From positions 28,710,832 to 28,774,831 of the forward strand of contig OZ316892.1 of assembly GCA_973895155.1 (NCBI GenBank): a DNA stretch of 64,000 bases. Direction: 5' to 3'. The translations under genes were made by a program, and so were the position numbers. This document shows, in pieces, positions 11,952 to 64,000 of this stretch. The notes beneath the pieces were generated by a model. The model ran no database searches and was not told the origin of the DNA. It saw nothing but the letters and a program-made list of their open reading frames with translations. Within the stretch, counting starts at the first letter, position 1; every line of letters starts with the position of its first letter. The stretch is from Marsupella aquatica. Taxonomy: Eukaryota > Plantae > Marchantiophyta.

Positions 11952-13142
11952 ATGTTTTTTTCACGCTATGTCTCTTTTTACTTCATCTCCACGTCTTTTG
12001 CATTATTCTCGGCAGCAGCGAATGCCGGTCAATTGCTGCTGCCGAAGCCAAATGGCACTTACGAAGTCGGTGTAGGTACCATGGAATTGATCGACGAGAG
12101 CAGATTCCAGACGTTTGCACCCACTGTTCAGCACCGCACTTTCATGGTATCCTTGTTCTATCCTGTCAGCTCACACAAATCAACCAAGCCAGTCAACTAT
12201 ATGCCACCTGAAACAGCTGCTTTCGAAGATGGCTATCAGCAATCCTACTACGGCCTAGTAACCCCGAACGGCACCTTCGAAAAACTTGCTCTTCAATTGG
12301 CTGGCAAAAGCCATCAGACCCAAGGTACACTTGACTTCCCCATCGTCCTGTTCTCGCCTGCTCAAGGCACCTCCCGCCTGTTCTACAGTGTCATTGCGCA
12401 GACGATTGCAAGCTCGGGTTACATCGTCATTACCATCGACGCACCTTACGACGTCGACATTGTCGAATATCCAGATGGCTCAGTAATTCTCGCCAATCCT
12501 ACAGTCGCCGCCAACCCCACACAAGCCGACGTCGACCTTGCGGTCTCTGTTCGCGCACAAGACGCAAGCTTCGTCCTCGACCAACTCTCTAACGCATCCG
12601 TCATCTCACAGCTGATACCTGGCTCCTCACAAGGCATCAATGTCAGCAAGGTAGCCATGTTCGGACACTCATTTGGCGGCGCGGCAACTGCATCTGCCAT
12701 GCTCAACGACAGCCGTATTGCTGGCGGAGTGGCCATGGATGGTTCTCTCTTTGGCCCCGTCGTCCAGAAGGGCCTTGACAGACCATTCATGTTCATGGCG
12801 CACACCAATCATACGCGTACTAACGACAGCAGCATGGGAGACCCAAGCAACTCATGGTTCGACATTTGGCCCAATCTGCGTGGGTGGAAGCTCGACATCA
12901 TACTCGCAAACTCGGGCCACTACACGTTCTCCGACTATCCCATCGTCTTGGAGACTCTTCGGATTGTTCCCAATGCGACAGCAGCTGCTACCCTGCAGGT
13001 AACAGATCTCAATGGCTCGCGAGCACTGAAGATAGTCACGACATACGTTACTGCGTTTCTGAACATGGTGTTGAAGTGCGAACCGTCATCTCTGCTTCAA
13101 GGTCCTACAGCCGCGTTTCCAGAGGTGACATTCGAACGTTAG
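11952..13142 (+). CDS. Secreted alpha/beta hydrolase, PAF-acetylhydrolase (PAF-AH_p_II-like) family, fungal type
   Basis: Intronless 396-aa ORF with a signal-peptide-like N-terminus. Motifs: LPKPNGTYEVG, MVSLFYP, PIVLFSP, nucleophile GHSFGG, acid MDG, His in GHYTFSD. Confidence 0.85.
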   Translation: MFFSRYVSFYFISTSFALFSAAANAGQLLLPKPNGTYEVGVGTMELIDESRFQTFAPTVQHRTFMVSLFYPVSSHKSTKPVNYMPPETAAFEDGYQQSYYGLVTPNGTFEKLALQLAGKSHQTQGTLDFPIVLFSPAQGTSRLFYSVIAQTIASSGYIVITIDAPYDVDIVEYPDGSVILANPTVAANPTQADVDLAVSVRAQDASFVLDQLSNASVISQLIPGSSQGINVSKVAMFGHSFGGAATASAMLNDSRIAGGVAMDGSLFGPVVQKGLDRPFMFMAHTNHTRTNDSSMGDPSNSWFDIWPNLRGWKLDIILANSGHYTFSDYPIVLETLRIVPNATAAATLQVTDLNGSRALKIVTTYVTAFLNMVLKCEPSSLLQGPTAAFPEVTFER

Positions 13143-13680: not shown

Positions 13681-14538
13681 ATATATATATATCAAACTGC
13701 CAAAAAACAGAAGGTGCCGAACCGAGAGACATGATCCCACAGGCAAAAGACCCAATCAAGGGGGGAAACCACCAAGGGGCCAAGAAAAGCAAACCCAAAG
13801 ACATGAACCCAAACGCCTACCTATCAGCAAACTGGAGAGCCTGGTAAAGCTCCGGTGTGAACTGCATGGGGGGGTCAAGCAAAGGAATCCTACTAGCGGC
13901 CCTAAGACCAACAGTCTCCCCCCTACGAAGAATAGTGAACGCCTGTGCCCGCTGAAGCGCAACAGACACCCTCTGTCTAAAGAATGCAGTGATGACCGAC
14001 ACAGGGGGATAGGGCCTCCGCTCGACGTACTGAACTGCGCAAGAGCGAAGAAAACGGTCAAAGGATGGGTGTAGCGCCCCAAAGACCTCCACGGCAAACG
14101 GGTAGAAGAGGTCCCCGGGGTACCGCACAGCATAGGCCTCCTCCTTCAGCCGAGCTGCCCTCGCGGCGGCATGGCCAGGTATATGAGCCGCCGAAGCCAC
14201 ATTGGCCCCACTAGTCGGATCAGCAACAACGACATCCCCAAGGGCACGAACACCAGCGCGAGAGAATACCAAATCTGCACGACGGCGATCAGAAACCCCA
14301 TCCCGTGGAGGTAACACATGTCTCTGCTCCATCATGACATGGTAACCAGAATCACGGGCAATGGCCGCCACCACGTCCCGAATGTCGTCGTGTGTCGCAG
14401 TCCTCTCACTACCATGACCGCACCTGAGAATGTGAATGCCTTGCCCATCAAGGGGCGCACCACAGACGCAAGTGGGCTGACCCAAGAGGCAAGGGTGAGG
14501 AAGACCCAACCGAAGGCGCGTGGATGTGGTAAAAATAA
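13681..14538 (-). mobile_element. 5'-truncated CRE-like non-LTR retrotransposon (zinc knuckle + restriction-like endonuclease part)
   Basis: ORF 13817-14509 has CxC...H...C, HDDIRD, RRADLV, DVVV, K...Y, PFAVEVFG. It is followed by a GT-rich 3' UTR and a (TA)n tail. Candidate TSD actatttt (13673-13680, 14539-14546). Confidence 0.85.
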
Positions 14539-15044
14539 ACTATTTTGGTCCACGCTTCTTTCAACTTGATGAAGGTTCTCTCAATTATGTTGGGTAACAG
14601 AAGGGGTCTTGCTCTTATAGAAACTATCATTTTTGCTTAGTCCAGGAGAGCGCATGAACCCCCTGAAATGTATGATAACTGAAACAAGGTAATAAATGTG
14701 CTCCCTCGTGGTCTTGGCTGCCGCAGTCACCGTCACCACAACCAACGAGACTCTCACTTCTGGTAACGAGATTGGTATCTCCATATATATTTGTCTGCAT
14801 ACCTGGAGAATGGTCACTTTGTTGGCATTGTACTTAGTTAGAAACGAGAAATTTTGACCATGTAAGTACAGTACTTATTTCAAAAATACCATTACTTCAT
14901 GGACCCCATAAGATAGTCGTTATAATGGACATCCAGGCAGCCTCTGTCCTCTATCTCCGGTCACGACCAATCTTTTCAAATTTTGAAATCGTGACTGAAG
15001 TGTAGGACCTGACTACCCTCAGTAAGGCACAACCAATATTCTTA

Positions 15045-19750: not shown

Positions 19751-21500
19751 TTATACGGGCTTCCAAAACGGCAGAACTTTCTTCTGCTTGTTGGCGCAAT
19801 CAACAAACCGAGAACCAGCCAGCATTTTAAAAGGAGGAACAAGGAGGTTATCCTTGTTTTTGTAATACTCTTCACCATTGACCGCAGTGACTGGAGCTGG
19901 ATACTTGAGAGAAAGTTGCTGTTTATTGTTCAAAATGGTCACGTACAGAAAGTCCCGGCACACCTCTTTAATGAGGTCCCTCATTTCTATGTTGTCTGTC
20001 CATTTCCTTGGAATTGCAGCTTCTCCATATAATGCCCCTACCAGATTTCCTGTGATGGCACCTGTGCTATCTGAATCTCCACCGTGATTCACTGAGTAGC
20101 GGAGTGCCTGCTCCACATCTTTATCCTTTTGGGTAATAAGAGCACAGTAAAGGGAAAATCCCAAAGCTTCTTCAGCGACAACACCTCGTCCCAAGCTTTC
20201 TAAGTGTCTCAAAACAACCTTTTGCTTGAGGAGTTCTGCTTCGGTTGTAGGCTCTGTCTCCTCAAACTCTTGCAAGAACTCCAAGGCCAGCTTCTTGGCT
20301 TCAACCATCTTGTAAAGAGTCTCTTCATGATTCGGCTCGTTCTCCAGAAGTTCTATCGTTTGGTTTATGGCGTGGACGAGCATATCACCTGTAAATTACA
20401 CTTCATACGCTTTAACTTGAGCGTTTTTGGTTCACCGAAAAGACAATTGACTACCTAGAAAATGATTAGAAAAGTTAAAAGGTCTGGACGTACCTGACAG
20501 AATTCTTGAGATTATAGCTGCTAGACAACCAGAAGCGAGCCATCCCGAAGGATGAGTATGGGTAATGGCGGCAGCCAAGCAACCCAATTTGAAGGCGAGC
20601 TCTGCCCTTTCATTATGTGAAAAGAAGGAAAATGCACTATGCACAAATAGCCCGCATGGGGCAACTCGCTTTATCCCACCGCAACCTGAAACTCAATGAT
20701 GTCTGTTGTGAGTTGAAGCAGAAAATTGCGGGACGGTGAGTGACCAATTGACGTTTTGATTTCCTATTTAATGAGTAGGCAGGCTAAGCAATAACGATGA
20801 TACCTTTGCTCTGGTTAATCTCATTGTAGGTGGTGCCAATAGCTCCACTCTTTAAACTCTTTCTGCACGTCTGTCCTGGACCTCTTCTGTGCTGTAATCC
20901 TTCTTCATTCACTAGCATTCCCTTGTCCTTCACCTCATGGAACAGAGGGCTTTGGGACTCTTCGCTCTGTGTGGCCAACCACCTCAAGTATGATTGATGA
21001 AGGCCAGGGAGAGCATCTTCCGCTTGAAATGTACTCAGATCTGTGTTCCATGAGAGAAGTGACAGGATGGTTGACAGCAATCCTTCCGCAGTGAACAATG
21101 TCATCTGAGTGTCGTCTGTGAATGTGGCCTTCCCGTCCACTGTGATGATAAGCTCTCTTGTTCCTGCATGGAGACCAATATTTGGAACTTTGTGAGCACA
21201 GGACAGGCCGGACGCTGAGCTTGCTTGCAATACCCTTGAAGCACGGAGAAGGAAAGAAATGTGGTTGATGAGCAAGTGGTTAATCTGTTACATCCATTCA
21301 CGGAGAGAAATGTGAAAACCGGTGAGAAACATGCACTTGCAAAAGAGGAAGCCAGAAAGAGCTGTCCCACCTAACGGACCATACTCTTGAAAAATCTGGT
21401 CCAAGTCTAGAAGCTCGACCGGCTCTCCCAAAGCATCTCCACAAGCTCCGGCTAGCAAGCACCCCGCAAATCGGTCCTCTAAAGTAAATTCGTTAGCCAT
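19751..21500 (-). CDS. ADP-ribosylglycohydrolase (ARH/DraG family), 4 exons: 21500-21371, 21163-20804, 20685-20494, 20388-19751 (439 aa)
   Basis: Motifs [70 protein letters not shown] introns give a 1320-nt in-frame CDS. Confidence 0.9.
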
Positions 21501-34488: not shown

Positions 34489-35442
34489 ATGAAAGTGGTC
34501 GAAGTGAATTGGCGGCAGTTTCAAGAAGAGCACCGCGGCACTGCTCGGGCGTTAGGCAACATGAACCGCTCGTTCAACTCGTTCAAGAGGTCTCCAGCTC
34601 TCGTTTGCTCGGTCGGTGCGTTTGTAATCGTCTATGCGGTTTACGGACTGCTTCTCCTTCCGAATAATTCAAATCGTGGTGTCCGCAACGTCTCCAAGAC
34701 GAGGATTGCCGCCGTGCCCGCTCCAACTAGTAGTGTTCCCACCGTTACTGTGAGGTATACTCAGGAGGAGCTAGAGAGAGTGATGATGTCTCACGAGGCA
34801 CGTCGAGCTGTGGAGCCCCGGGATCTCGTGAATAGGCTTAGGGAAATCGGTTGGGGAATCATAAACAAAAATAATTCTGTGCCGGAAAAAGATGATTCCG
34901 TGCATGCCGAGCCGGATATTAATGGAGATCTTGGCGAGTCTCGGGATGGTGTGCAATCTAATGGGGGGATTCCTGAACAAGGGAAGTCGGGTCAGAAGGA
35001 GGAAAGGGCAAAACCAAAGATTCAGCTGGACGGAGGGAAACTAGTCCTCAAGGGACCGGAGATAGAGGATGGTATCATTCCAGGGAGGCCAATCCCACCT
35101 GAATGTAATGCGGAGCCGCACACAGACTACGATGGTGTAGCTGTGAGGTGGGGTTTGACATTTTCCCAAGAGAGTGCTGCGGATTGCTGTCAAGCATGTA
35201 TCGACCAGGCTAGAAGTGCACGGGAAGGAGAGTTGCGGTGCAATGTCTGGGTTTACTGCCCAGCTGAAGAGGGCTGCTATTCACCTGATATCTATGAGCA
35301 CAAGGAATCCGAATGTTGGCTCAAACAGAGTGAACAACCAAGAACCAATTTCAAAGGACGTTACTCCCCTGCCTATAGAGAGGAGCACCCAAAGTGTACA
35401 GAGGTGGTAGCCTGGGCTTCAGGTGTGATCTATCTAGTTTAA
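34489..35442 (+). CDS. Conserved plant type-II membrane protein with C-terminal PAN/Apple-like cysteine-rich domain
   Basis: N-terminal TM segment (ALVCSVGAFVIVYAVYGLLLL) and CNAEPHTDYDGVAVRWG...DCCQAC...CNVWVYC...ECWLKQ...WASGV. Intronless, 317 aa. Confidence 0.85.
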   Translation: MKVVEVNWRQFQEEHRGTARALGNMNRSFNSFKRSPALVCSVGAFVIVYAVYGLLLLPNNSNRGVRNVSKTRIAAVPAPTSSVPTVTVRYTQEELERVMMSHEARRAVEPRDLVNRLREIGWGIINKNNSVPEKDDSVHAEPDINGDLGESRDGVQSNGGIPEQGKSGQKEERAKPKIQLDGGKLVLKGPEIEDGIIPGRPIPPECNAEPHTDYDGVAVRWGLTFSQESAADCCQACIDQARSAREGELRCNVWVYCPAEEGCYSPDIYEHKESECWLKQSEQPRTNFKGRYSPAYREEHPKCTEVVAWASGVIYLV

Positions 35443-39342: not shown

Positions 39343-42300
39343 ATGGCGAGGCTGGTGCGGAGGCCCCTTGCTATGGACCTCGTTCTATCGTCACGAAAGC
39401 CTTTGGGACACCATCTCTTCACTCGGACCATGGCCACAGACAGCAGCAGCGCAGCGGCAACATCGGCAACATCGGCAACATCTACGAAATCAGAGGTTTC
39501 GGCTTCGAAGCAGCTCAGCGGAAGCAGCATCAAGGGAACATTAGGCCGACGCTTCTACAAGAACGCGCTCGTCAAGCCCGTCCCCGTCCCCGGCGCCGAT
39601 CAGCATCAGGATCAGCACAAGGAGGGCGGATCTTTCGAGATTTCGTTGGATCATCGAGTGCTGCGGACTCCTGCGAAGCAACCGCTCCGATTCTCCAATC
39701 CCGCACTGGCCCATGCGATCGCAGCCGAATGGGAGTGGCAGGTGACTCGAAATCTGTGACCGGTAACCCTTGGATGAATGCGAATGAGAGGCAACTCAGT
39801 TTTCTTGCGGTTTTAGGGTTGGTGGTGTTCAAAGATTGTATTTTTCCTCTATGAAGAATTTGTTAGCTTATTTCATTAATGATACGATGGAATCTCTTGA
39901 AGAGTATAGACGTTGGTGTGATATGCATGGAATGTGATTGAGAAGGATTCCACCTTTTTGAGTTTTAGGGTTTGGGATCGTCAGTTTACCCTTGTTTCTC
40001 TCTATGCGAAGCTTCACATAGTGCAATCCTATGATGGTATGGTGGAATATTGTACACTGTGTGGCTGTTGGCCGTCGTAGTCAGGGTAGAGTGCGATTGG
40101 AAATGACTTCAGATTTGGGGATTTTAGGGTGTAGGATGTTTAGTTCACCTATTTTTCTTTTTTTGACTGAAGTTTTTGGCAGTGGTAAAATGGAATTTCT
40201 TGAATTTTATGAACAAGTTGATGAAACTGAAAGACTATTTGGTTACTGGCCTTAAAACCCTTGGATTATATTGGGTTTGTTTGCGTTGTCCGTTCAAGAT
40301 ACCATTTATCGAGTTACTGAATTCTGACCTATATGTCAGGACAGTAGTGGAGTTCGTTCCTATACAATGCCACTAATGAAGCTGGCCTCAATATCGATCG
40401 ACCAAGTACCAAATGATAAAGAGAGAATCATCGCAACCCTGCTGAAATATTGTCACACGGACGCTTTGTGCTGCCGGGCGTCCCCAGAGAGTGTACTATA
40501 TGGTATTTACTCACCCCATAACTGCTTTTCATTACCTGACAAGTGACAGAGGTTGGACTTAGAAGTCTATTTTAAAGCGTATCACATGTTCTGGGCTTCA
40601 GGAGAAATGTGATCTTGTCGTTTAGTCGGCCTCTCGGGTGTGGCAATTTTCTCCACTGGAACACCGAGTCCGAGGACTCCGGTAGTGAATTCATCTGAGG
40701 AAAGAAGATAAGATGGGAACCAAGTAGGAGATTAAAGGGTGGTCTATCAAATACAAACTGGAAGTAGTGAGCCAAGATCATCCTAGAAAATCCATACTTA
40801 TCTCCTGCATGACCTAGTTTCGTGGACGCGTATTCTGTTTTAGTTCATCTGGCTATGAAGAAGAAAAGGCCGGTCTTACTGTTGCCCGGGCTCTTGAATG
40901 CCTCAAGAGCTGCAAGAAGGCGGCACAGTGCTGCATACCATCGAAAAAGGTTATCTGAGCCAACATTTCTTCTCACTTCGATATGAAGCCTGAGGAGCGA
41001 ATTATCGCAACCGTGCTGAAATATTGTCGCACCGACTCTCTGTTTGTTTTATGGTATTCTCTCACCCAATGGGTGCTTTTCACTACCTGACAAGTGATAG
41101 AATATGACTTAGAAGTCTATTTTAAAGGCTAGTACATGTCCTGGGCGTCTGGAGTGGGAGAAATGCGATCTTATTGATTATTCAGCCTCTCGGTCTGTCA
41201 TTTAACTCCACTGGAACACCGAGTCAGAGGAATTCCGTAGTGACTTCATGCGAGAAAAGAACATAAAATGGGAACCAAGTAGGAGCGTAAAGTGTGGTCT
41301 ATCAAATACGAACTGGAAGTAGCAAGCCCTTATTGTTTATAGTGCGTGTCCTTATGGGGAGAATGGGAGTCTTCTAACTTTTCTTCTGTTGGTAAACGCT
41401 AATTGAAGAACGAAATATTACCTGCCTAATTTGGGTTAGCCACCAAACAAGATTTTCCTGTTCTGGATGCAACTTTCCAGGCTTACAGTCTGTAGCTCAA
41501 TTGGTTTCAGGCATCTTGAATAGGAGGATCCTGATAGGCGGAAACCCAATGGTACTAAGCGAGCGTATATCGAAGCTTACAAGTCTGGTTTTCCAAGAAA
41601 ATCCATGCTTACCACCGTCGTAACTTAGTTTCGTGAACGCGTTTTCTGTTTTAGTTCATCTGGCTATGAAGACAAAAAAGGCCGAGTCTGACTGTTGCCC
41701 GGGCTCTTGAGGTGCCTCAAGAGCTGCCAGAAGGCGGCACAGTGCTGCATTCCTCGAAAAAGGTTATCTGAGCCAACCTTTTTTCTCACTTAGATGTGAA
41801 GCCTGAACTTGTTCTCTTCTAGGTTTAATGTAACTCAATGTCTAACGAAAAGCTGCTCTCGAGGTACTGAAATTATAGGAAATGCTAACATAGTCTGCCG
41901 TGTGGGCTGTCAGACAAACAGGCCAGGCACTGGGATCCTCTCCTTGACTGGGTGGAGGCAGAGATAGGAGCCAGACCAATTGTCTCTTCCAGTATTTTTG
42001 GACCAACTCAGCCACAGGAGTTTGTCAGGAGTCTGGAAAATTGTCTTCGGGGTTTGAATCACTGGCAACTGGCTGCAATAGACTCCTTGTCAGGCTCCGC
42101 ACGCTCCATTGTGGTAGCCTTGGCAATAGCTCGCAACAAGCTGAACATTGAGCAAGCTATCGAGGTCATTCGCGTGGAGGAGAATCACCAGGTTTGTTCA
42201 CCTTTCCAACGTTGAATTTTTCAAGTTTCTCAGGGCTCTCGTCAACCGACTTAGAATTACACGCCTGTAACTGGAACTTCTCTGGGATACAGAGACCGCG

Positions 42301-53172: not shown

Positions 53173-54759
53173 TTACTCAGATGAGAAAATGAGCCTACCT
53201 TTCTTTACGATTTCCATTTCTGTATACTTCTCCCAACCTATGAATGCATCCAACAAACCTGCTTCACTGACTTCAGAAATTTCAGGTTTGACGTCTTTAG
53301 GAGACAAGAAGAAAATCTCCAACACTTTTATCTTCATATGCTCACTCACTTGAGTCACTAGCTTGTGAAACTGCTCTATTTTGAACGAGTGTTTTGAAGC
53401 TGTCCGCAATTGGACGAATTGCAGCTTCCGTTCTGACTTGTTGATGAACACTGCATCGTAACCAGCTTCGTTCCACTTCTGAGGTTTCCACCATAGGGCA
53501 TCATCCGGAACACCTTGGATGTTGGAGGTGTCAACCAAATAGACTTCCGAGCTAGGCCATGTTTCTGGAACACTGTCTTTGACATGAACTGTGACACCTT
53601 CATGATGGATTTTGGCAAAAAAACGCATTTCAAATAACCAACCATCCATGGCAGGATTCCAGTGTTGTCTCAGACATTGTGAAAGGCGATCTACTAACTG
53701 TGGCCCCCATTTCAGTGCCACTTGGGTTGCAGCAAAACGGCTGACAATGGAATACCTTTTTCTGTCGGACCGGGAATTCTTGTAAGAACTAAACAGGCAG
53801 GCCGCAACGTCGCTTGAGCCCACGCCTCTGGTGTCGTCTATGTATGGCAGGACATCAGTAACACACTCGAGCACTGTGCAAATTGAGTTGGTCACCATCT
53901 GCGTGGAGAATTGGAACATATAGCGACATGAACCTCCTCCAAAATAAAATTTTGATTCCACCAATTCTTCACGAGAGATGCCCTCACCTGCTTCCGTTGC
54001 GTCCAAACTGAGTTTGACATTGTTGTAGAACTCATCGTCCTTCACTGCTTCTATATACTGTTCCTTCGTCCAGGACTCAAGGAAAAACGCTTGACAATTT
54101 AATCTTGCATTCACCACTTCGTTACTCTTACCACGCTTTGACATTGAGCATATGAAAACTAAACGGCGCTTTCCATAGTTTCCTTGAAGCCAGAATTTAC
54201 ATATATCTTCAACGTGGGTGTGCTGATTGTGGTCAGCTGTAAAACCATCAACAAAAACCACGTGCTGCTGGTCATCGTATACGGCATCTAGAAAGGTCAC
54301 TACACTCTCTGGGTCACGGCTGACAAGAGTCCGCTTGGCAGAGCCCTCAACCTGGACACACTCCAGCAGTCTCCCCTCGAGATGTATCCACGAAAATGCC
54401 CAGATGAGCCGGGGGAGGGTCCACGCAAACGCCAGAACTGTATTAGACTTCCCTATCCCTGGCGATCCCAGAATCCATCCTACTGTGTAGGGATTTTGCT
54501 TACCCCCTGCGGATACTAATCTCGGAGTGTAGAGCGCATTCTCAAGGAAACTGAAAAGCTGGTGAAATTGTTCGCGGCAAAACAGGGACTCACTTGCAAT
54601 ATCGAGACCAGAATCTTTGAGGTGTAACTTGGACAACTCAAAAAATTTGTTCTCTGGGTTGTAAGCTAGTTGGCCTGGTGCATGTAGTTCACATATCACC
54701 GGATCAATCCGTGTTCGTTTTTTTGGCATCTCCATCGTGCCCACCGGCAGCGTACCCAC
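53173..54759 (-). CDS. Crinkler (CRN)-like protein: P-loop NTPase plus restriction-endonuclease-like domain, no N-terminal header
   Basis: Walker A GSPGIGKS, Walker B VVFVDG, GGSCRYMF, then GWLFE...WWKPQKWNEAGYDAV...FVQL...H. Intronless, first ATG at 54735. Confidence 0.75.
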   Translation of the reverse strand: MGTLPVGTMEMPKKRTRIDPVICELHAPGQLAYNPENKFFELSKLHLKDSGLDIASESLFCREQFHQLFSFLENALYTPRLVSAGGKQNPYTVGWILGSPGIGKSNTVLAFAWTLPRLIWAFSWIHLEGRLLECVQVEGSAKRTLVSRDPESVVTFLDAVYDDQQHVVFVDGFTADHNQHTHVEDICKFWLQGNYGKRRLVFICSMSKRGKSNEVVNARLNCQAFFLESWTKEQYIEAVKDDEFYNNVKLSLDATEAGEGISREELVESKFYFGGGSCRYMFQFSTQMVTNSICTVLECVTDVLPYIDDTRGVGSSDVAACLFSSYKNSRSDRKRYSIVSRFAATQVALKWGPQLVDRLSQCLRQHWNPAMDGWLFEMRFFAKIHHEGVTVHVKDSVPETWPSSEVYLVDTSNIQGVPDDALWWKPQKWNEAGYDAVFINKSERKLQFVQLRTASKHSFKIEQFHKLVTQVSEHMKIKVLEIFFLSPKDVKPEISEVSEAGLLDAFIGWEKYTEMEIVKKGRLIFSSE

Positions 54760-54859
54760 TCGCCCAACAACGCCAAAGTATGTAACTAGCTTACGTCATG
54801 GTGACCACGGAGGCCGCCCTGCCAGAGGGCAGGTGAGTGGAAGCAGCCGGGTTGTGCTT

Positions 54860-57800
54860 GCAGGTCGAAGCTGCAAATTAGAAAGTAATCCTTTCTTTTG
54901 AAGAATAACCAAACCTTTTTCACTCATGTGACCCAAACGGAAGTGCCACAGCCGGGCCGTCTCCTCATGAGATAAGGTTACATTGGCTTCATCATAAATT
55001 ACACTGCCCTCCAAAATTTATAGATTGCTATGTCTCTTTCCCTTCAATACAACTTTAGTACCAGTTGATACCTGAAGGACACCATTAGCAGAACTCAATT
55101 GATGGCCATTTGCTTCTAAAACTCCAAGTGAAATGAGATTTTTCATCATGTTGGGAATATGTAGACCTCACATTTCTCAACGTTCTCACAGCACCATCAA
55201 ACATCTGAAATCTTACAGATCCAAGTCCAACAACTTGACATGGGATTCCATTTCCCATCAACACTGACCCATTGGAAACCGTGTAAGAACTAAAAAAATC
55301 TCTCATAGAGCAAATATGAAAAGTACATGCACTATCTAGAATCCAGTCATCACTACCTGGATTTGACACTACGTTGAGAGCATAACCTTGACATCATAAT
55401 ATGTCATCATTATCGAGTAAATCTACCTCATGCGAGCTCGATGCCGCGTTAGCAAATGCAGTAGGGACCTTTACTCGACAATCCCTTTTCATGTGGCCAG
55501 GCTTGCCACAATTCCAACATGCAAGAGGTTCCTCTCTTGCAATTTTCCTCTGGATTTAGATCTCCCCCGTGATGTAGATAAACCTGTTTTGTCCATTCGT
55601 GCGCTGCGCTGCTCTTCCCCTGTTCACATTGAGCGCAGTGCCAGAAGAAGATGCTCTCTGTGATTGACCCAGCTTCTTCTAAGCATCATCAGACAATAAA
55701 GAGCTCACCACCTCATTATACAAAATGGACTTCAGATCTCTATACAAGAGCACCTATTTCAAGCCCTGATATGACGGCGGTAAGGAGCTTAGCAAAAGCA
55801 AGGCCTTATCCTCATCTTCAACTCCTTTTCCCACGTCTGACAGATCCACCGCTAGACTGTCAAACTCATCCAGGTGATCATGCATGTTGCTCCCTTCCTT
55901 GAGCCTGAGGCTCATCAAGAGAGACTTCTTGTACAACCGGTCTCATGCATCTTCCCGGTAGTACGTACGTCTCTCTTAGAGCCTTGAATAGTGACGCACA
56001 ATCCGCATAATCATCCAGCTGCTTGATGATGTGCGGCTTGAGATATAGCATCACTGCGTTGACAACAATCACCTGCGTTCACACAAATCTCCTCCTCTCC
56101 ATCATACTACTCTCGCAAAGAAAGCAGATGAGCTAAGCCCATGGCCCGTAGAACACTCTTCACTTGCTTCTCCCACAACAAGTAATCAGTACGACCATCG
56201 TACTTCTCCACCTCAAACTTCACTCCTCCAAATCTAGTCATCTCCCTCTTCTTCCCAACTATCGACAACTCTGGTAGTAAGACACCTTCCTCCACTGCAC
56301 GCCGCACCGGTGATGGTACCGGTGTAACTAGTTCTTCCTCAAACGGTAGCAGCTCCTCCTCAGACTCTCCGTCTGACCGTCGTGATCCTGAAGCTCCACC
56401 AACGCCAATTCTTCCAGTATCCTCCGAGTCACTCATATGAAACAATCACGAAAAAACTTCTTTTTTCAAAACTTCTCACAAAACTCAAAACTCAACACCG
56501 CCGCGTAGCCCATGAAGCTAGGAGTCCAATACTGAAAGCCGAAGTCAAAATCAAAATTCGACGGAAAAGTTATTCAAATTTTGGTCAGGGTGGGTAAAAC
56601 CTTGGGAAACTCCCCTATTTTTCCCACCTCAGAGAATAACTGAAATACCCTATACAACCCATCGTCAGAACCGTGATGTGATCGGTGCGCCACGTTGCTA
56701 ACTCTAGTGGCAACGTCCTCACCGAAAAAGAACCAAAAAAGTTATCGTTCGGCGGAGAGAATCTTTGTCTGACGGCCAAAAAATAGCTCTCTGTTTTTTG
56801 GGAATATTCCCGCACAGTCCGACAGGTCTCACAGGGGACCGTTCCCCCTGTCGTGGCGGTTAAAACGGAGGGCGGCAGGTCCCGGCTCCAAGTAAAACAA
56901 GAAAGAAGGAAAAAGGTTAAAACCGGGCCCTAAATGGGTCCTTAGTGTCCCTTAAATCCTAAAAATACAAGGTATAAAAAAAGGCGCATCTGCGTCATAT
57001 AGGCGATGCGAGGCGGGCCAGGCACCGTCGAGGGTTGAGGAGGGGAAAATACAGGGAGAAATACGCCGGCAGGGCGCGAGCCGGTAGGGAGGGCGCGGGG
57101 GTTCGCGAGGGCAGGTTATCGGCTGCCAGCGGCAGTAGGCAGCACGATGGCGGAGGCGTATACGGGCTCGCTTAGGGTCCGGGGCGCGGGGCCCTGCGGG
57201 CTTGCAAAGGAAGTGTGCGTCGAAGGGCCGGCCGTCGCAAGGGCGTACATGGTGGTCGCGGGGGGGCGCGGGGAGGTAGTGTCGGGCAGCTGCCGGGCAG
57301 CAGCAATCGCGCCGGCCGGCGCTGCGCAGGGGCCTTGTAATACGGGGTGCAAGGAGGGGGGAAAACAAATACACAGGGGGAGGAGTCGGGCCCGAGGTAC
57401 GAGGTGTGTGTATACACCTCGTATACACACACAGGGACCAAACCCCCTTTAAACGCCAAAAATGACCCCCCCATGCAAGCAAAAATCAGTCACACACCTT
57501 AATTGCCGCTGATTTAAACGAGAAAAGTGAATGCCACCGACGGGAAATGTTGCCGAATTGCACTGGCACAGTCTGCAACTCCAGCAGAGTAAATTATTTC
57601 CGCCGCGTCGCCTTCACTCCGCGTCAAGTGCCAATCCCGGGCTCAAAACGACCGCCTCGTCGTGATCAAACCGTTGAGCCATGGCACTTCGCGTCTCTTC
57701 CAACCAGTCGGACGTCACGAAGGGAACCCGATTCAGATGAGAACAAGCTCTAGAGCTTGTGAAAAAACCTGAACGCCTCCTTCACTCGTCACGACGCACT

Positions 57801-58516
57801 CGGTAACAACTCGGCAACAATCCAACTACCAAAACGACCAGCTCGCGTCAACCTTCAACATGAGCTATAATGTGCGATCCCTCCCGCACCGCACAGCTCA
57901 CACTGTTAAAAACGCGAACTCTGGTCTCTCCCCCGAAATACCGTCGAACACGAATAAACCCTGAACGACGCAAACTTCGATTCCTCCGCACCACGGATAC
58001 CGATCAGCGAGTTCTAACCATTGTTAGAAAGCCCTCTCACTAACCTAGCCGCATAGCCACACACATTCAAGTTTCATGCGACGAAACTTCGAATGTGCCA
58101 CCGACAATGAATGCTGGAAAAAACCTATCACGAAAAAACCTCGTCACCTCCCAGGCATGCTCTGATACCACTTGTTGAGCATATCCGACATTCGTAACGG
58201 TAAGCCCATGAACCATCCAACGCACAAGAGTCGACACACAGAGATACGTGGTTCACCTCCACATGAGGCTACGTCCACGGGAACACAAAGGAGCTTTACT
58301 ACACTCTAGGTCGACCGGCCATACCAAGCATCCATAGCACAAGCTCTCCCTATCTCTCAACTAGCTCCGTAACAATGAGCCTAAGTTCCACCAGGGTCTG
58401 GCATCAGCCCCGGCTATATGCACAACAGCACTACTGCTAACATTAGCTAAGTCCTAACCCAAGTTAGACTAATTGTGGTTAGGTCATGAGTCACAAGACT
58501 AGAGCAATATCTAACA
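54860..58516 (-). mobile_element. Truncated, frameshifted Ty1/copia LTR retrotransposon (5' LTR 58173-58516, PBS 58159-58170, gag-protease-pre-integrase remnants)
   Basis: LTR tgttg...taaca and PBS tggtatcagagc (tRNA-iMet). gag KFEVEKYDGRTDYLLW and DEDKALLLLSSLP, protease WILDSACTFH, and LWHFRLGHMSEKGL. The element ends before the integrase core. Confidence 0.9.
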
Positions 58517-59593
58517 TACTTAGGGTTTATGTCACTTACGTGACCCATGCACTACTGACATGCACAGTTACCTTTTGATGGTAGTACTACACATGATCAA
58601 CTGACCACTTTGTTATCCAGATGCATAGTGTGTCTGATTAATTGTGTGGTAAGCCATCACACAAGAATGTTGTTGTATGGAGTGGAGGTCCACTAGGAGA
58701 GAATCTGAAATTTTGAGGCCATTGGGAGAGAATCTGAAATACATTTTGATCCATTGAGAGAGAATCTCCATCAAAAGAAAAAGTTTTGTCTGCAGGTTCA
58801 CTTAGTATATATAGCAAACTTTGGCCAAAGATCCTATTCCTCTCATTTTGCGGTGAACTTTGGCCAAAGACCATGTGATCCAACAAACTTTCACATCCTC
58901 TGGCCTCCTGTGATTTTGGAGTGAAGTTTGGCCAAAGAACATATTATATGATTTACTCTGGAATCAAGTGCCCTCCTCCCATTTTGTAAAGTGAACTTTG
59001 TCACAAAACCGTAAACTTGCGGTGGAGATTGTCAGAAATTTGGGCAAATGTCATATTTCTGGGGTGGAGATTTAGAGATTCAAGGAGAGAATGCAAACTC
59101 TCTACAGAAACTCGTTTCGTTTTGTAAAGTGGCCCAAAGCTGGTGTCCGTCGAAAGTAAAGACAGTTTCAGTCTGGAATCTCGAGCATGTAAGATGGAGT
59201 CCAAATTACAGCACCAAGTGGGAGCCACTCCAAAGTTTCGTTGTGAACGACCATCTAGCAGGAAACCGTGGCTACCATAGAAGCGGCTGCAGATCATGAC
59301 TGTCTCGTTCTCAACGCCGCTGCACTATATAAAGAAGCTCAGACATCGGCAACCTCAACGTACAATTCGATTCATTTTACTACCTGCAACTGTTCTCCAT
59401 CTTCTGCTTAATACGTGTTTCCAGTCTCAGAAGCCACATTATGTAGCGAAGACTTAGCAATTGCTTAGAAAAGTTTGAAAGGGATGAGCTAATTCAAAAG
59501 CCGCTCAGTGTAGACTGAGAGCTTGAGCTGTTTGAATTGGAGTAGACGAAGGTCTCAATCTCAATCAAGCTAGCTCGATCAGAGTGCCATCCG

Positions 59594-60081
59594 ATGGCAG
59601 CGGCGGTGGCATTAGCGCAACATGGAACCGATCGGGACACAGCTCAGAATGGGAAACTCGGATCCAAAGTTGAGAAGAGCCTGAAATTGAAGGAGACTCC
59701 AGTAGAGGCCTACGAGGACATGGCTAAGGTCCCGGACGAGTTTGTGGTCACCGACGACAAGAAAATTCCAAACAGGAATTGGGGTGATGATGACGAGTCG
59801 AAGCCTAAGTTCGGCTACCCAACTATTAACCTGGCACCTCTGTTGAGGTTCTTCGCCAATCAGCAACAACCCGGGGACGCAGAAGCCTCCGAGAAAATTA
59901 TCGAAGATATGGGAAAGGCTTGCGAGGAATGGGGGTTTTTCCAGGTTGGCTGGAGACATCTTCTGAACACTTGCATCCATCGCACGATCGTTGGTTACAA
60001 TTGCTGTGGACAGAGCTGATTTTAGGAAAAATATGTTGAGTCTGGGAACACACCATTTCATCCCACGTCATTTTTCTTGCC

Positions 60082-60124
<43 letters not shown>

Positions 60125-61442
60125 ATGAATGGAATATTGAATCATCAGAGTGTAATTGGATGACGAGTTCAGGCGGTGGACCATGGAATCACCCAGGAAC
60201 TCATTGACAACGTGATCAAGGTTTCAAACGAGTTTTTCCAGCTGCCGCTGGAAGAGAAAGAGAAGTATGCATTGAGGCCCGGTGAAACTGATGGCTATGG
60301 CAGACTAGACTTCAGCTTGGCCGGTAAGGGTCCTGCTCGGACTCGTCTCTGGAGTGATGTACTACGCCATGATATCAGACCTATCCCAACAGCCACTCGT
60401 GATCGAATACCTAAGAAGCCCGAAGCCTACAGGTACATGCACACGGCATTTCTTCGCTCCTTCGCACGTTAGTCCTTTATACACAGATCTAGATTAAAGA
60501 TGTGACATCGCGAATCACTCCCGGAATCACTCGGCTTGAGCTGAGGCCCTTCATCGTATATGTGGACACGGTTAGAAAGGCAATACAGGCCGCCGTCAGA
60601 TCGATCTTACTTGACTAGAGAAGCTTCAATTTGAGCTGTCCTCGAATTCTAACGGATGGAACAACGTGACTGTACAGGGGTTTGATAAAACTACACTCAA
60701 GGAATGGAGAAAATTCTGCAGGTTGTGTGGAAGGCACTTTCGGTGTATCTGGGTCTTGATCCGGACACCCTCTTCGACGCTCAAGGGGCTGAAGACGAGT
60801 CTCATTTGATTATCCGAGTCAACTACTATCCAAAGTGCGGCGAACCCGAGAAAGTTCTAGGCGTGGGTGGGCACAAGGATTTTGGCTCCCTGACGCTGCT
60901 GCTGCAAGACGACGTGGGAGGTCTGCAGGTACAAAAACGTGGCACGACAGGGTGGCTCGATGTGCCACCGCGAGCAGGAGCAAACAAAGGATCAATACTG
61001 GTCAATGTTGCCAATCAAGTGGAGGTATATGAAGCTTTAGCACACGCGACTGCAGTTTCGATGATTTGAGTGGTCGTCCAGATACATGAATTAATTCATG
61101 TTAGAAAGCAATTGGATAATCCCCTCAAATTCTTTCATTAGCCTATTTCAATGTGAGTGGTATTAATCTTGTTCCTTCTATCACAATGCAGATTATGAGT
61201 AATGGGAGATTACACAGTGTTCTGCACAGGGCGCTGGTAAATCGGAACAGCTCCCGTCTTTCCATTGCTGCTTTTGCCACTCCTGGACGTGCATTATCAA
61301 GCCACTAGACGCGGTGCTTGAGAGATATGGCGAAAAACCAAAATACACCTCTCTGGTGTATGGAACTTACGCACCTAACTTCGCCAAGGACGTCGGTGCA
61401 GGAGTTTCACCCCATGCCCGCTACGAAATCAACCGTGAATAG
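59594..61442 (+). pseudogene. 2-oxoglutarate/Fe(II) dioxygenase (DOXC class); exons ~59594-59944, 60173-60432, 60678-61024, 61192-61442; two apparent frameshifts
   Basis: PTINL, ACEEWGFFQAVDHGI, RVNYYPKC, HKD, GGLQV, SNGRLHSVLHRA, RLSIA. Exon 3 joins one base out of frame and exon 4 shifts frame near 61290. Confidence 0.8.
60084..60120. repeat. (CT)n microsatellite in intron
   Basis: Direct reading. Confidence 0.95.
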
Positions 61443-61693
61443 TTGCGAGTGCTATCGGTTTTAGGCCCAATTTTATGATGTCAAATTCTCAAATTTGACA
61501 ACTGTAGTCCGCAAAATCAACATACAGTAACTTCCAATGTCTGTTTAAGGCTGGAATTTTGTTGTAGATACCCGGAAATGGATATAATTATAGATACCAA
61601 GACTGGTCTCAGGGCAGGAATTGTCCATCCTTCCAAAATACTACTAGTTGAGGTATTGGTCTGTCCCGGATCAAATTGTTTTGGTAGTTCATC

Positions 61694-62932
61694 ACTATTG
61701 GCAATAAACAGAGGCGTTTCTGGCGGTAAAATCTGAGAAATTAACCAAGCGGCTTTACTCTCAATGATTTCATCTATTTTCCCCATCGTCTGGTCAATAG
61801 ATGTCCTAACTTGCGTTTCGGCATCACACCATTTGTTTCTATAGTCTGAAGAACCAGATAAATTTATCTCTTCTACTTTGATGTCTTCTACAGATATGCG
61901 TAAATGTGTTGTTCTCCCGTGCAAAGGATCAAGGTTTTGGTAACAGGGATCAATTACCCAGCGTCGCGATTGGGTTGCATCTATCCAGGTACGCAGTTCT
62001 TTACTAGTAGGCATTTCTCCCACCTGAATCACCATTTCGGGCGCTAACTGCTTTGCTAGTTGCTGATTTCGCAAAATCAGGTCATAAGTAGAAATTAAAT
62101 AGGGGTTGAGTTCGGCATAATTTCTGACTGGGGAAAGTCCCTCTGCTAGCACAGGCCATTTGAGAGTTTGGGAAAGGTGCGCGATCGCTCTACAATATTC
62201 TTGTGGTTGCTGTGGTTGGGCAACACCTGCAATGATCATGCCGCGATCGCATTCTTTCCATTGTTGGGGAATGGGGAGTAGGGAGTGGGGAGTTGGGAAT
62301 CCGGTAGTACTTGCTATTCCGGCAAAAAAGTCTTTTGGGTGAAACTGTGATTGCAAATGACTCAAGTCAGTTCCATCAGGAACAGGCGCTAAGGGATCGC
62401 GAAAGGGAATATTCAAATGTACTGGTCCGGTTGTCGGAGTTTGCGCTCTTTCCCAGCTATGAATTACCACTTGTCGCAGATAAGCTAGCATTCCCACATC
62501 GGCGGAGGGTAAGGCTAACTCTGTTTGCCAATTTGGGTAGTTTCCATATAATCTCAATTGATCTACAGTTTGCCCAGAGTGACAATCGCGCAATTCTGGC
62601 GGTCTATCGGTGGTTAATATCAACAGTGGTACCCGACTATATGAGGCTTCAATGACTGCTGAATAAAAATTTGCTCCGGCGGTACCAGAGGTGCAAAGAA
62701 CTACCACAGGACGCCCGGTTGCTTTGGCTTGTCCCAAGGCAAAAAAGGCGGCGGAACGTTCATCAAGAATGGAAATCGCTTCCAGATCAGGTGCTTGTTG
62801 AGCAAAGGCGATCGCTAACGGTGTAGAGCGCGATCCCGGACAAATGATGGCACAAGTCAACCCCAAACGCTTTAACGTCTCTGTTAAAATATAAGCCCAA
62901 AGTTGATTAATATTCCTATAAGCGATCGCCAT
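61694..62932 (-). pseudogene. menD: SEPHCHC synthase MenD, cyanobacterial, 3'-truncated at the junction
   Basis: ICPGSRSTPL, DERSAAFFALG, CTSGTAGANF, DRPPELRDCHSGQT, GPVHLNIPFRDPL. Homology stops at PLFIANS, where MenD normally continues MPVRD. Confidence 0.92.
62266..62297. repeat. STRR-like heptamer array within menD
   Basis: ggggaat/ggggagt/agggagt/ggggagt/tgggaat units, typical of heterocystous cyanobacteria. Confidence 0.7.
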
Positions 62933-62996
62933 CAAATCAAACATAGGTAGATGTACAATTCTACCAGAAAAAGACTTTGTTTCCTCTCAAACTTTT

Positions 62997-63365
62997 ATGG
63001 ACTGCATTTATTTAACGGGAATTCGGTGCTATGGTTACACTGGGTATCTGCAAGAAGAACAGGTACTAGGACAATGGTTTGAGGTGGATGTCAAGTTATG
63101 GTTGGATATCTCCACAGCGGCCAAGACCGACGCGATCGCCAACACTGTAGATTATCGCAGTGTTATTAGCTTGATACAACATCTAGTTAAAACATCTAAA
63201 TTTGCTTTAGTGGAGAAATTGGTAACAACGATCGCAGATTCTATTCTCCAAGAATGCGATCGTGTAACACAAGTCCAAGTCATTCTGAGCAAACCTGCCG
63301 CCCCTATCCCAGACTTTGGTGGCAAAATTAGCATTGAGCTGACTAAAAGTAAGTCTAATATCTAA
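62997..63365 (+). CDS. folB: Dihydroneopterin aldolase, cyanobacterial
   Basis: MDCIYLTGIRCYGYTG...EEQVLGQWFEVD...TVDY...FALVE...KPAAP; intact 122 aa. Confidence 0.95.
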   Translation: MDCIYLTGIRCYGYTGYLQEEQVLGQWFEVDVKLWLDISTAAKTDAIANTVDYRSVISLIQHLVKTSKFALVEKLVTTIADSILQECDRVTQVQVILSKPAAPIPDFGGKISIELTKSKSNI

Positions 63366-63536
63366 AGCACAAAATGTGTTTTTTATCAATATCTATAAGT
63401 TAGCAAACAGAGGGAGTTTAGGTAGAGCGTGGAAGTATAGCAGGGGACTCGATACTTATTCAGGTGATGTGGAAAAGCTAACGATTGACCTAACCCCCTA
63501 ATAGCATTTCACTTTAATAATCAGACAAATACGTTG

Positions 63537-63670
63537 GTAGGGGCTTGTCTTTGCCATGCCCCTACGAGAAATCTATATGTATCAGGATTTTCGTGAATTG
63601 GTATAACCCCCTTTCCAACACGGGAAGGGGAAAATTTAAAGTCTCTATCCTTAAAGGAAGTGAGGTTTTC
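63537..63670. repeat. Nostoc-type intergenic palindromic/dispersed repeats
   Basis: Hairpins gtaggggc...gcccctac (63537-63565) and cccctttcc...ggaagggg (~63608-63631). Confidence 0.5.
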
Positions 63671-64000
63671 AAGATACCGTGAAAACTCAGATAATGATTA
63701 ATATTTAGTAGTAATTGAACTCAGGGAGTTTATTAAAAACAAAACATCATATATTATTTTCTTAACTTAAATTAAAATATGATACTGTAATTGCATGGAT
63801 TTTTGTTGCGAATTAATTTTTACATAATTTGTACTATACTTGGTATTTATGCTTCTCTGAAGAAAAATCACCACATATTTCTAGAATCAGTTTTTGAGCG
63901 CTGGTAATTACATGGTAATTTTTACTTGATGTTAATGGCTTGCTATTAACTGCATGCACTAATCAGAACTAGCTTTAACAAGCACATAAATTGTCAGAGG

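Follow-up and report, generated by a model that had tools for sequence, protein, structure and literature searches.

A gapless join of liverwort and Nostoc DNA in a Marsupella aquatica contig, most likely not a real feature of the plant

Stretches of bacterial DNA contiguous with host DNA have been described from insects and nematodes, in the form of Wolbachia insertions (PMC10898089), and from bryophytes, as microbial gene transfers (PMC12513842, PMC11228847). Many microbial transfers were reported in a survey of bryophytes whose genomes came almost entirely from plants collected in the field, cyanobacterial donors being excluded (PMC12513842), and a moss genome was heavily filtered for contaminants before two transfers were accepted (PMC11228847). 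The squalene-hopene cyclase of ferns, an ancient gene present in some 40 of them and following the species tree, shows that a cyanobacterial gene can reside in a land-plant nuclear genome (PMC6786969). For Azolla, the same paper reports no Nostoc-to-host transfer and only an ancient, fern-wide cyanobacterial gene. Screening with FCS-GX, by contrast, treats terminal and internal inter-kingdom spans as contamination, and short spans are under-reported if the species is absent from the database (PMC10898089). In the literature that we covered, incompletely, on bryophyte gene transfer, Nostoc and contamination, no recent Nostoc insertion in a liverwort was found.

Here we analyse a window of 64,000 nucleotides from a Marsupella aquatica contig in which plant DNA passes into Nostoc DNA. 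To be accepted, an integrant has to be flanked by host genes at either end, shared by relatives or covered at even read depth; here bacterial DNA is likewise contiguous with host DNA, but the site is empty elsewhere and a single junction is visible. Unlike the fern cyclase, the Nostoc segment is modern, truncated and unshared. With inter-kingdom chimeric contamination of the FCS-GX TRIM/FIX class (PMC10898089), the locus has in common a prokaryotic span, nearly identical to DNA of a living organism, that is attached without a gap to a eukaryotic contig; it differs in its 4-bp microhomology and in that the chimera is deduced here and not read from the source reads. The segment shares gene order, divergent layout and spacer with the menD–folB locus of two Nostoc sp. 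MAGs, L008 (isolate P3068 bin 7) and L029 (P6620 bin 4), but belongs to a strain or species of its own (end branch 0.086), and its menD is cut after codon 415. We conclude that the sequence is as an initial annotation described it and that the join is most likely not a real plant feature; our favoured reading, to which we assign a probability of about 0.8, is a chimeric read or assembly misjoin with DNA of epiphytic Nostoc.

The join and the DNA on its two sides

The window contains no N, and hence no gap at the join between plant and Nostoc DNA (Table 1). When positions 59001–64000 were compared by blastn with 80 Nostocales loci, the alignments began at exactly 61694 in 79, the exception (L072) being a contig that ends earlier, and left of 61680 the whole window gave no match to these loci; from 61694 to its last position the sequence is Nostoc DNA, so that the window ends inside it. 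This comparison with Nostoc, which the initial annotation had proposed, bears out its placing of the change to cyanobacterial sequence about 250 bp past the dioxygenase, and of the cut in menD, after PLFIANS, at about 61693/61694. In two of the public sequencing runs described below (X1 and X4), the plant flank leading up to the join also occurs in a second version, set apart by 18 differences and 2 gaps.

The same annotation had seen neither an N gap nor a target-site duplication or transposon end at the join. That much stands, with no flanking direct or terminal inverted repeat ending there in a repeat search of 61300–62100, but plant and Nostoc sequence overlap by 4 bp, ACTA, which the annotation had missed. 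The chance of at least 4 shared bases at a blunt random join is 0.018 (about 2%), and of all the observations it is this microhomology that speaks most strongly against a chimera by simple ligation. Microhomology of such a kind is a trace left by microhomology-mediated repair; a polymerase template switch in library amplification leaves an equal mark. Two further candidate causes were rejected: transposon-mediated insertion, as the join has no target-site duplication or terminal inverted repeat (a duplication being assessable only with the far end), and a Hi-C ligation junction, as GATC, GANTC, CTNAG and TTAA, which we take as the Hi-C site list, are absent at the join on inspection of the sequence.

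Table 1. Features on both sides of the join and elsewhere in the window (X1, X3 and X4, public sequencing runs; L008, a Nostoc locus)
Feature	Position	Strand	Remarks
PAF-acetylhydrolase-like ORF	11955-13142	+	PF03403; intact, intronless, 395 residues
2-oxoglutarate/Fe(II) dioxygenase pseudogene copy	59594..61442	+	Pfam DIOX_N, 2OG-FeII_Oxy; exons about 59594-59944, 60173-60432, 60678-61024, 61192-61442
Plant downstream flank	61443..61693		Matched exactly by contigs of host runs X1, X3 and (to 61672) X4; no Nostoc match
Junction, 4-bp microhomology ACTA	61694..61697		Plant contigs match up to 61697, Nostoc contigs from 61694
Nostoc menD (SEPHCHC synthase)	61694..62938	-	PF02776, PF16582; codons 1-415 of about 585
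Five HIP1 octamers	62181, 62243, 62808, 62922, 63132 (span 62181..63139)		5 seen, 0.01 expected
STRR-like 7-bp tandem array	62265..62298		4.9 copies, in frame inside menD
Nostoc folB (dihydroneopterin aldolase)	62997..63365	+	PF02152; intact, 122 aa
Nostoc intergenic DNA	63366..64000		Colinear with the L008 spacer between folB and a response-regulator/GGDEF-type gene; runs past the window end

On the plant side, what had been described as an intron-containing plant dioxygenase does have four exons, but it is a frameshifted pseudogene copy, with one frameshift near 60688 and a second, judging from the reading frames, probably near 61290. The frameshifts are real and the copy is a pseudogene rather than the product of read error, because the same letters recur, identical and gap-free, in contigs of three host runs (X1–X3). 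The gene belongs to a multi-copy family, and paralog contigs in these runs are 90–95% alike.

Elsewhere in the plant part, a single-exon gene for a PAN-domain protein (34489–35442) is 69% identical to a protein of Calypogeia fissa, 45–46% to Riccia and about 43% to Sphagnum; by these best matches the host is a liverwort, and probably one of the leafy kind. A 540-aa open frame on the minus strand (53173–54795) has no Pfam match and is matched to crinkler/RHS-like eukaryotic clusters of the Atlas at scores of 0.98–0.99, and two ADP-ribosylglycohydrolase pieces (PF03747) lie in separate frames at 19751–21287 (minus strand; low CpG, with an observed/expected ratio of 0.51), a split or decayed gene. 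The stretches 56001–57068 and 57603–58670 are very high-copy repeats, probably of LTR type; their summed contig depth in X1 reaches about 709,000, whereas single-copy pieces have about 40. An 809-aa reverse-transcriptase frame (PF00078; 30330–32759, minus strand) and a shorter frame resembling its end (13817–14539, minus strand) are pieces of non-LTR retroelements.

Right of the join, Pfam domains confirm the two genes that had been named there, menD on the minus strand and folB. The relatives of this menD carry a median of 169 further residues (range 165–180), beginning MPVRDVE. When GTDB genomes were searched for the menD fragment (80 loci kept of 440 confirmed, nearly all Nostoc), protein identity to Nostoc reached 91%, and a metagenome scan gave no closer relative among 80 loci kept of 136. 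Nucleotide identity to L008 is 93.0% in menD and 96.2% in folB. Exact look-up of the folB, PAF-acetylhydrolase-like and PAN proteins gave no identical entry in the collection searched.

The sequence markers reported right of the join were also recovered. Matching coding stretches of 75 Nostoc loci hold 1–4 HIP1 octamers each; the plant part, where the initial annotation had noticed none, has one at 39715, inside an ATP12 exon, with 0.21 expected by chance. The 7-bp array, which we take to be STRR-like as had been proposed, is length-variable among Nostoc, and alignments to L008 and L065 break there. Beyond folB, positions 63688–64000 align at about 67–84% in most Nostocales loci; the label of the response-regulator/GGDEF-type gene in L008 comes from motifs in its ORF map, not from a domain scan. 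Nothing in the segment would be expected to work as a plant gene: some 169 residues are missing from menD, and the bacterial spacers of the genes are still in place.

Both halves continue separately in other samples

The five best-matching of 24 public runs, X1–X5, were compared with the window as contigs. X1 and X4 bear organism label A, X2 and X3 label B and X5 label C, with X1 and X3 coming from two studies (P1, P2); the contigs are built from short reads and drop rare variants, and the samples may not be the sequenced individual. In these samples, both halves of the window are separate, ordinary sequences with continuations of their own.

First, the plant half continues into other DNA. The plant part occurs in X1, X2 and X3, where numerous contigs agree with the window letter for letter. 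One contig each in X1 and X3 is exact to 61697 and then passes into a sequence that is identical in the two (30 letters compared) and is neither Nostoc nor that of the window; the X3 contig has 1079 bases, 787 of them past the matched part, and a 25-letter piece of the continuation has no match in 160 cyanobacterial loci with up to 3 mismatches allowed. Because other samples with the same plant DNA thus carry a different, non-Nostoc continuation, the join is likely not a gene transfer. This empty site is seen in two of the four host runs. Depth right of the join (61698–61958) is 0 in X1 and X4. X2, which was read only to about 57%, has zero cover at 61608–61874, and X4 diverges from the window sequence at 61672, which is 25 bases short of the join, and is silent on the join site. 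The plant flank near 61672 may vary in structure among individuals, as X4 and X1 share an organism label.

Second, the Nostoc half continues into a normal gene. X3 and X5 contain Nostoc contigs whose match starts at 61694 and which run on into normal menD, so that the gene is intact in two runs. At the join, the Nostoc strain in X3 is 89% alike with a depth of 2.1; in X5 the Nostoc depth is 3.6, and the cover given by this run is confined to the Nostoc part, the plant part having none. Other strains of Nostoc, at about 89–95% identity, are present in the host samples X3 and X4, so that Nostoc DNA is a common companion of this plant.

Third, none of the five runs has a contig bridging the join, and no joints occur in 4 of 4 runs examined there.

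In X1, the exact and the 18-difference copies of the flank both stop at 61697 and there is one continuation contig; the layout suggests that the plant continuation predates the duplication of the locus. Two paralog contigs in X1 stop exactly at 61697, their last difference lying 31 bases earlier, probably by coincidence. A break in a short-read graph was considered improbable as the cause of a misjoin, since a sequence that runs for 64 kb without a gap, across repeats of very high copy number, speaks for long reads. Over window positions 58490–61349, contigs of X1–X3 show that label A and label B both have long stretches identical to the window (1152 and 1202 bases, no difference), which suggests very close taxa or a shared subgenome.

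Relatedness and age of the Nostoc segment

The segment has about 90% nucleotide identity to Nostoc and is nested among Nostoc in a tree built on 534 codons of menD and folB, in which it is sister to L008 plus L029 (support 100/100). The set used for the tree and for dN/dS comprised 79 of 160 loci, those with full-length, in-frame menD and folB at more than 84% identity. These results agree with the earlier call of Nostoc chromosomal rather than plastid DNA, and on the same grounds a plastid-derived nuclear insertion (NUPT) was rejected; we know of no land-plant plastome with menD and folB.

The bacterial reading frames had been called undecayed, and the measurements concur. The dN/dS of the window to its 79 relatives has a median of 0.172 (range 0.133–0.224), against 0.160 among 2880 Nostoc pairs; folB is intact, and menD is cut at the join. 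The two genes carry 21 letters private to the window, more than in any of the 79 relatives, 13 of them at third positions and none a CG/CHG-type transition; decay was assessed by these counts and by pairwise dN/dS. The CpG observed/expected ratio of the segment is 0.84 against a median of 0.81, and no decay or amelioration of host type (relaxed selection, CG/CHG transitions, introns) was found in it.

The nearest Nostoc is a strain in X5, 99.2% identical: six of its records, which amount to 1562 bases, contain 13 differences; a seventh record (6 differences in 88) was left out of this figure as another strain. In view of this match, the long end branch of the window reflects an unsampled Nostoc lineage and not decay within the plant. 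The freedom from decay excludes an old transfer and is compatible both with contamination and with a brand-new insertion.

Origin of the join and what it would mean

We favour a chimera with epiphytic Nostoc DNA. Nostoc living on the sample would have had its DNA co-extracted with that of the liverwort; a chimeric long read might then have formed by ligation, or by a polymerase template switch at a short shared stretch, or the assembly might instead have been misjoined at the duplicated dioxygenase locus, and the product would have been built into the liverwort contig. Given the empty site in two host runs, the intact menD in two and the lack of any bridging contig in five, the odds shift clearly towards a chimera, which the initial annotation was justified in holding at least as likely as a transfer; its other reading, the transfer, can be upheld only for an insertion confined to the individual that was sequenced. 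Counted against the chimera are the microhomology, with its chance of 0.018, the fact that only two of the four host runs bear directly on the site, and a description of inter-kingdom chimeric sequences as 'expected to be rare' (PMC10898089). A further point against it is the rarity of chimeric reads in unamplified and ultra-low-input HiFi libraries, where chimeric alignments are put at no more than 0.81%, as against 69.3% with multiple displacement amplification (PMC11809032).

A second foreign-looking gene lies inside plant-type DNA about 50 kb from the join. The 120 best homologs of this PAF-acetylhydrolase-like frame are 51–85% identical to it; five of them are named to an organism, all ascomycetes (Lecanoromycetidae sp., Puttea, Cladonia, Vezdaea and Loxospora), which we take to be lichen-forming fungi. 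The frame breaks 6 of 195 near-invariant columns (median 3 and maximum 15 in the others). To judge from these homologs, it may have been transferred recently from a fungus or be another chimera, and so bears both ways on the Nostoc join; as the mark of a genome taking up microbial DNA, it may count against the chimera. One supplementary text file of PMC12513842 makes no mention of PF03403, Nostoc or menD, the paper's tables of horizontal gene transfer lying outside that search.

The fungal-type gene is one of the observations that would fit a transfer caught in the act, which we consider unlikely. In the sequenced clone, a haploid gametophyte, at least 2.3 kb of epiphytic Nostoc DNA would have been captured at a double-strand break through microhomology-mediated end joining, a private and very recent event in a genome that also holds a lichen-type fungal gene. 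Such an event would account for the microhomology and the gapless join, and an undecayed sequence 99.2% identical to a living Nostoc is what a brand-new insertion should look like. Many species-specific microbial gene transfers are moreover reported in bryophytes, in a survey that excluded cyanobacterial donors (PMC12513842). Yet the two host runs with cover at the site both lack the insertion, none of the five runs bridges the join, a 27-base junction motif had no exact match in metagenome contigs (a weak test, as plant genomes are absent there), and no Nostoc-to-host transfer was found in a search in Azolla, the most intimate plant–Nostoc symbiosis (PMC6786969). An established transfer, fixed or old, or a plastid-derived nuclear insertion contributing menD or folB function, is very improbable despite the precedent of ancient cyanobacterium-derived genes in land plants such as the fern cyclase (PMC6786969), because the empty site in X1 and X3, along with a junction missing from all five runs, refutes a fixed insertion, and because the segment is 99.2% identical to Nostoc from another organism's run, nests among modern Nostoc beside L008 and L029, and has a truncated menD with neither decay nor introns.

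Understood as an artefact, the chimera warns of symbiont DNA fused gaplessly into a plant contig of this liverwort assembly; short chimeras pass contig-level decontamination and can inflate counts of bryophyte gene transfer. Should source reads confirm the join, it would be a rare, base-resolved and still polymorphic Nostoc-to-plant nuclear insertion, bearing on the delivery of DNA to the host by plant–cyanobacterial associations, which a search in Azolla failed to detect (PMC6786969), and the liverwort would be picking up DNA from its lichen-like epiphytic microbes.
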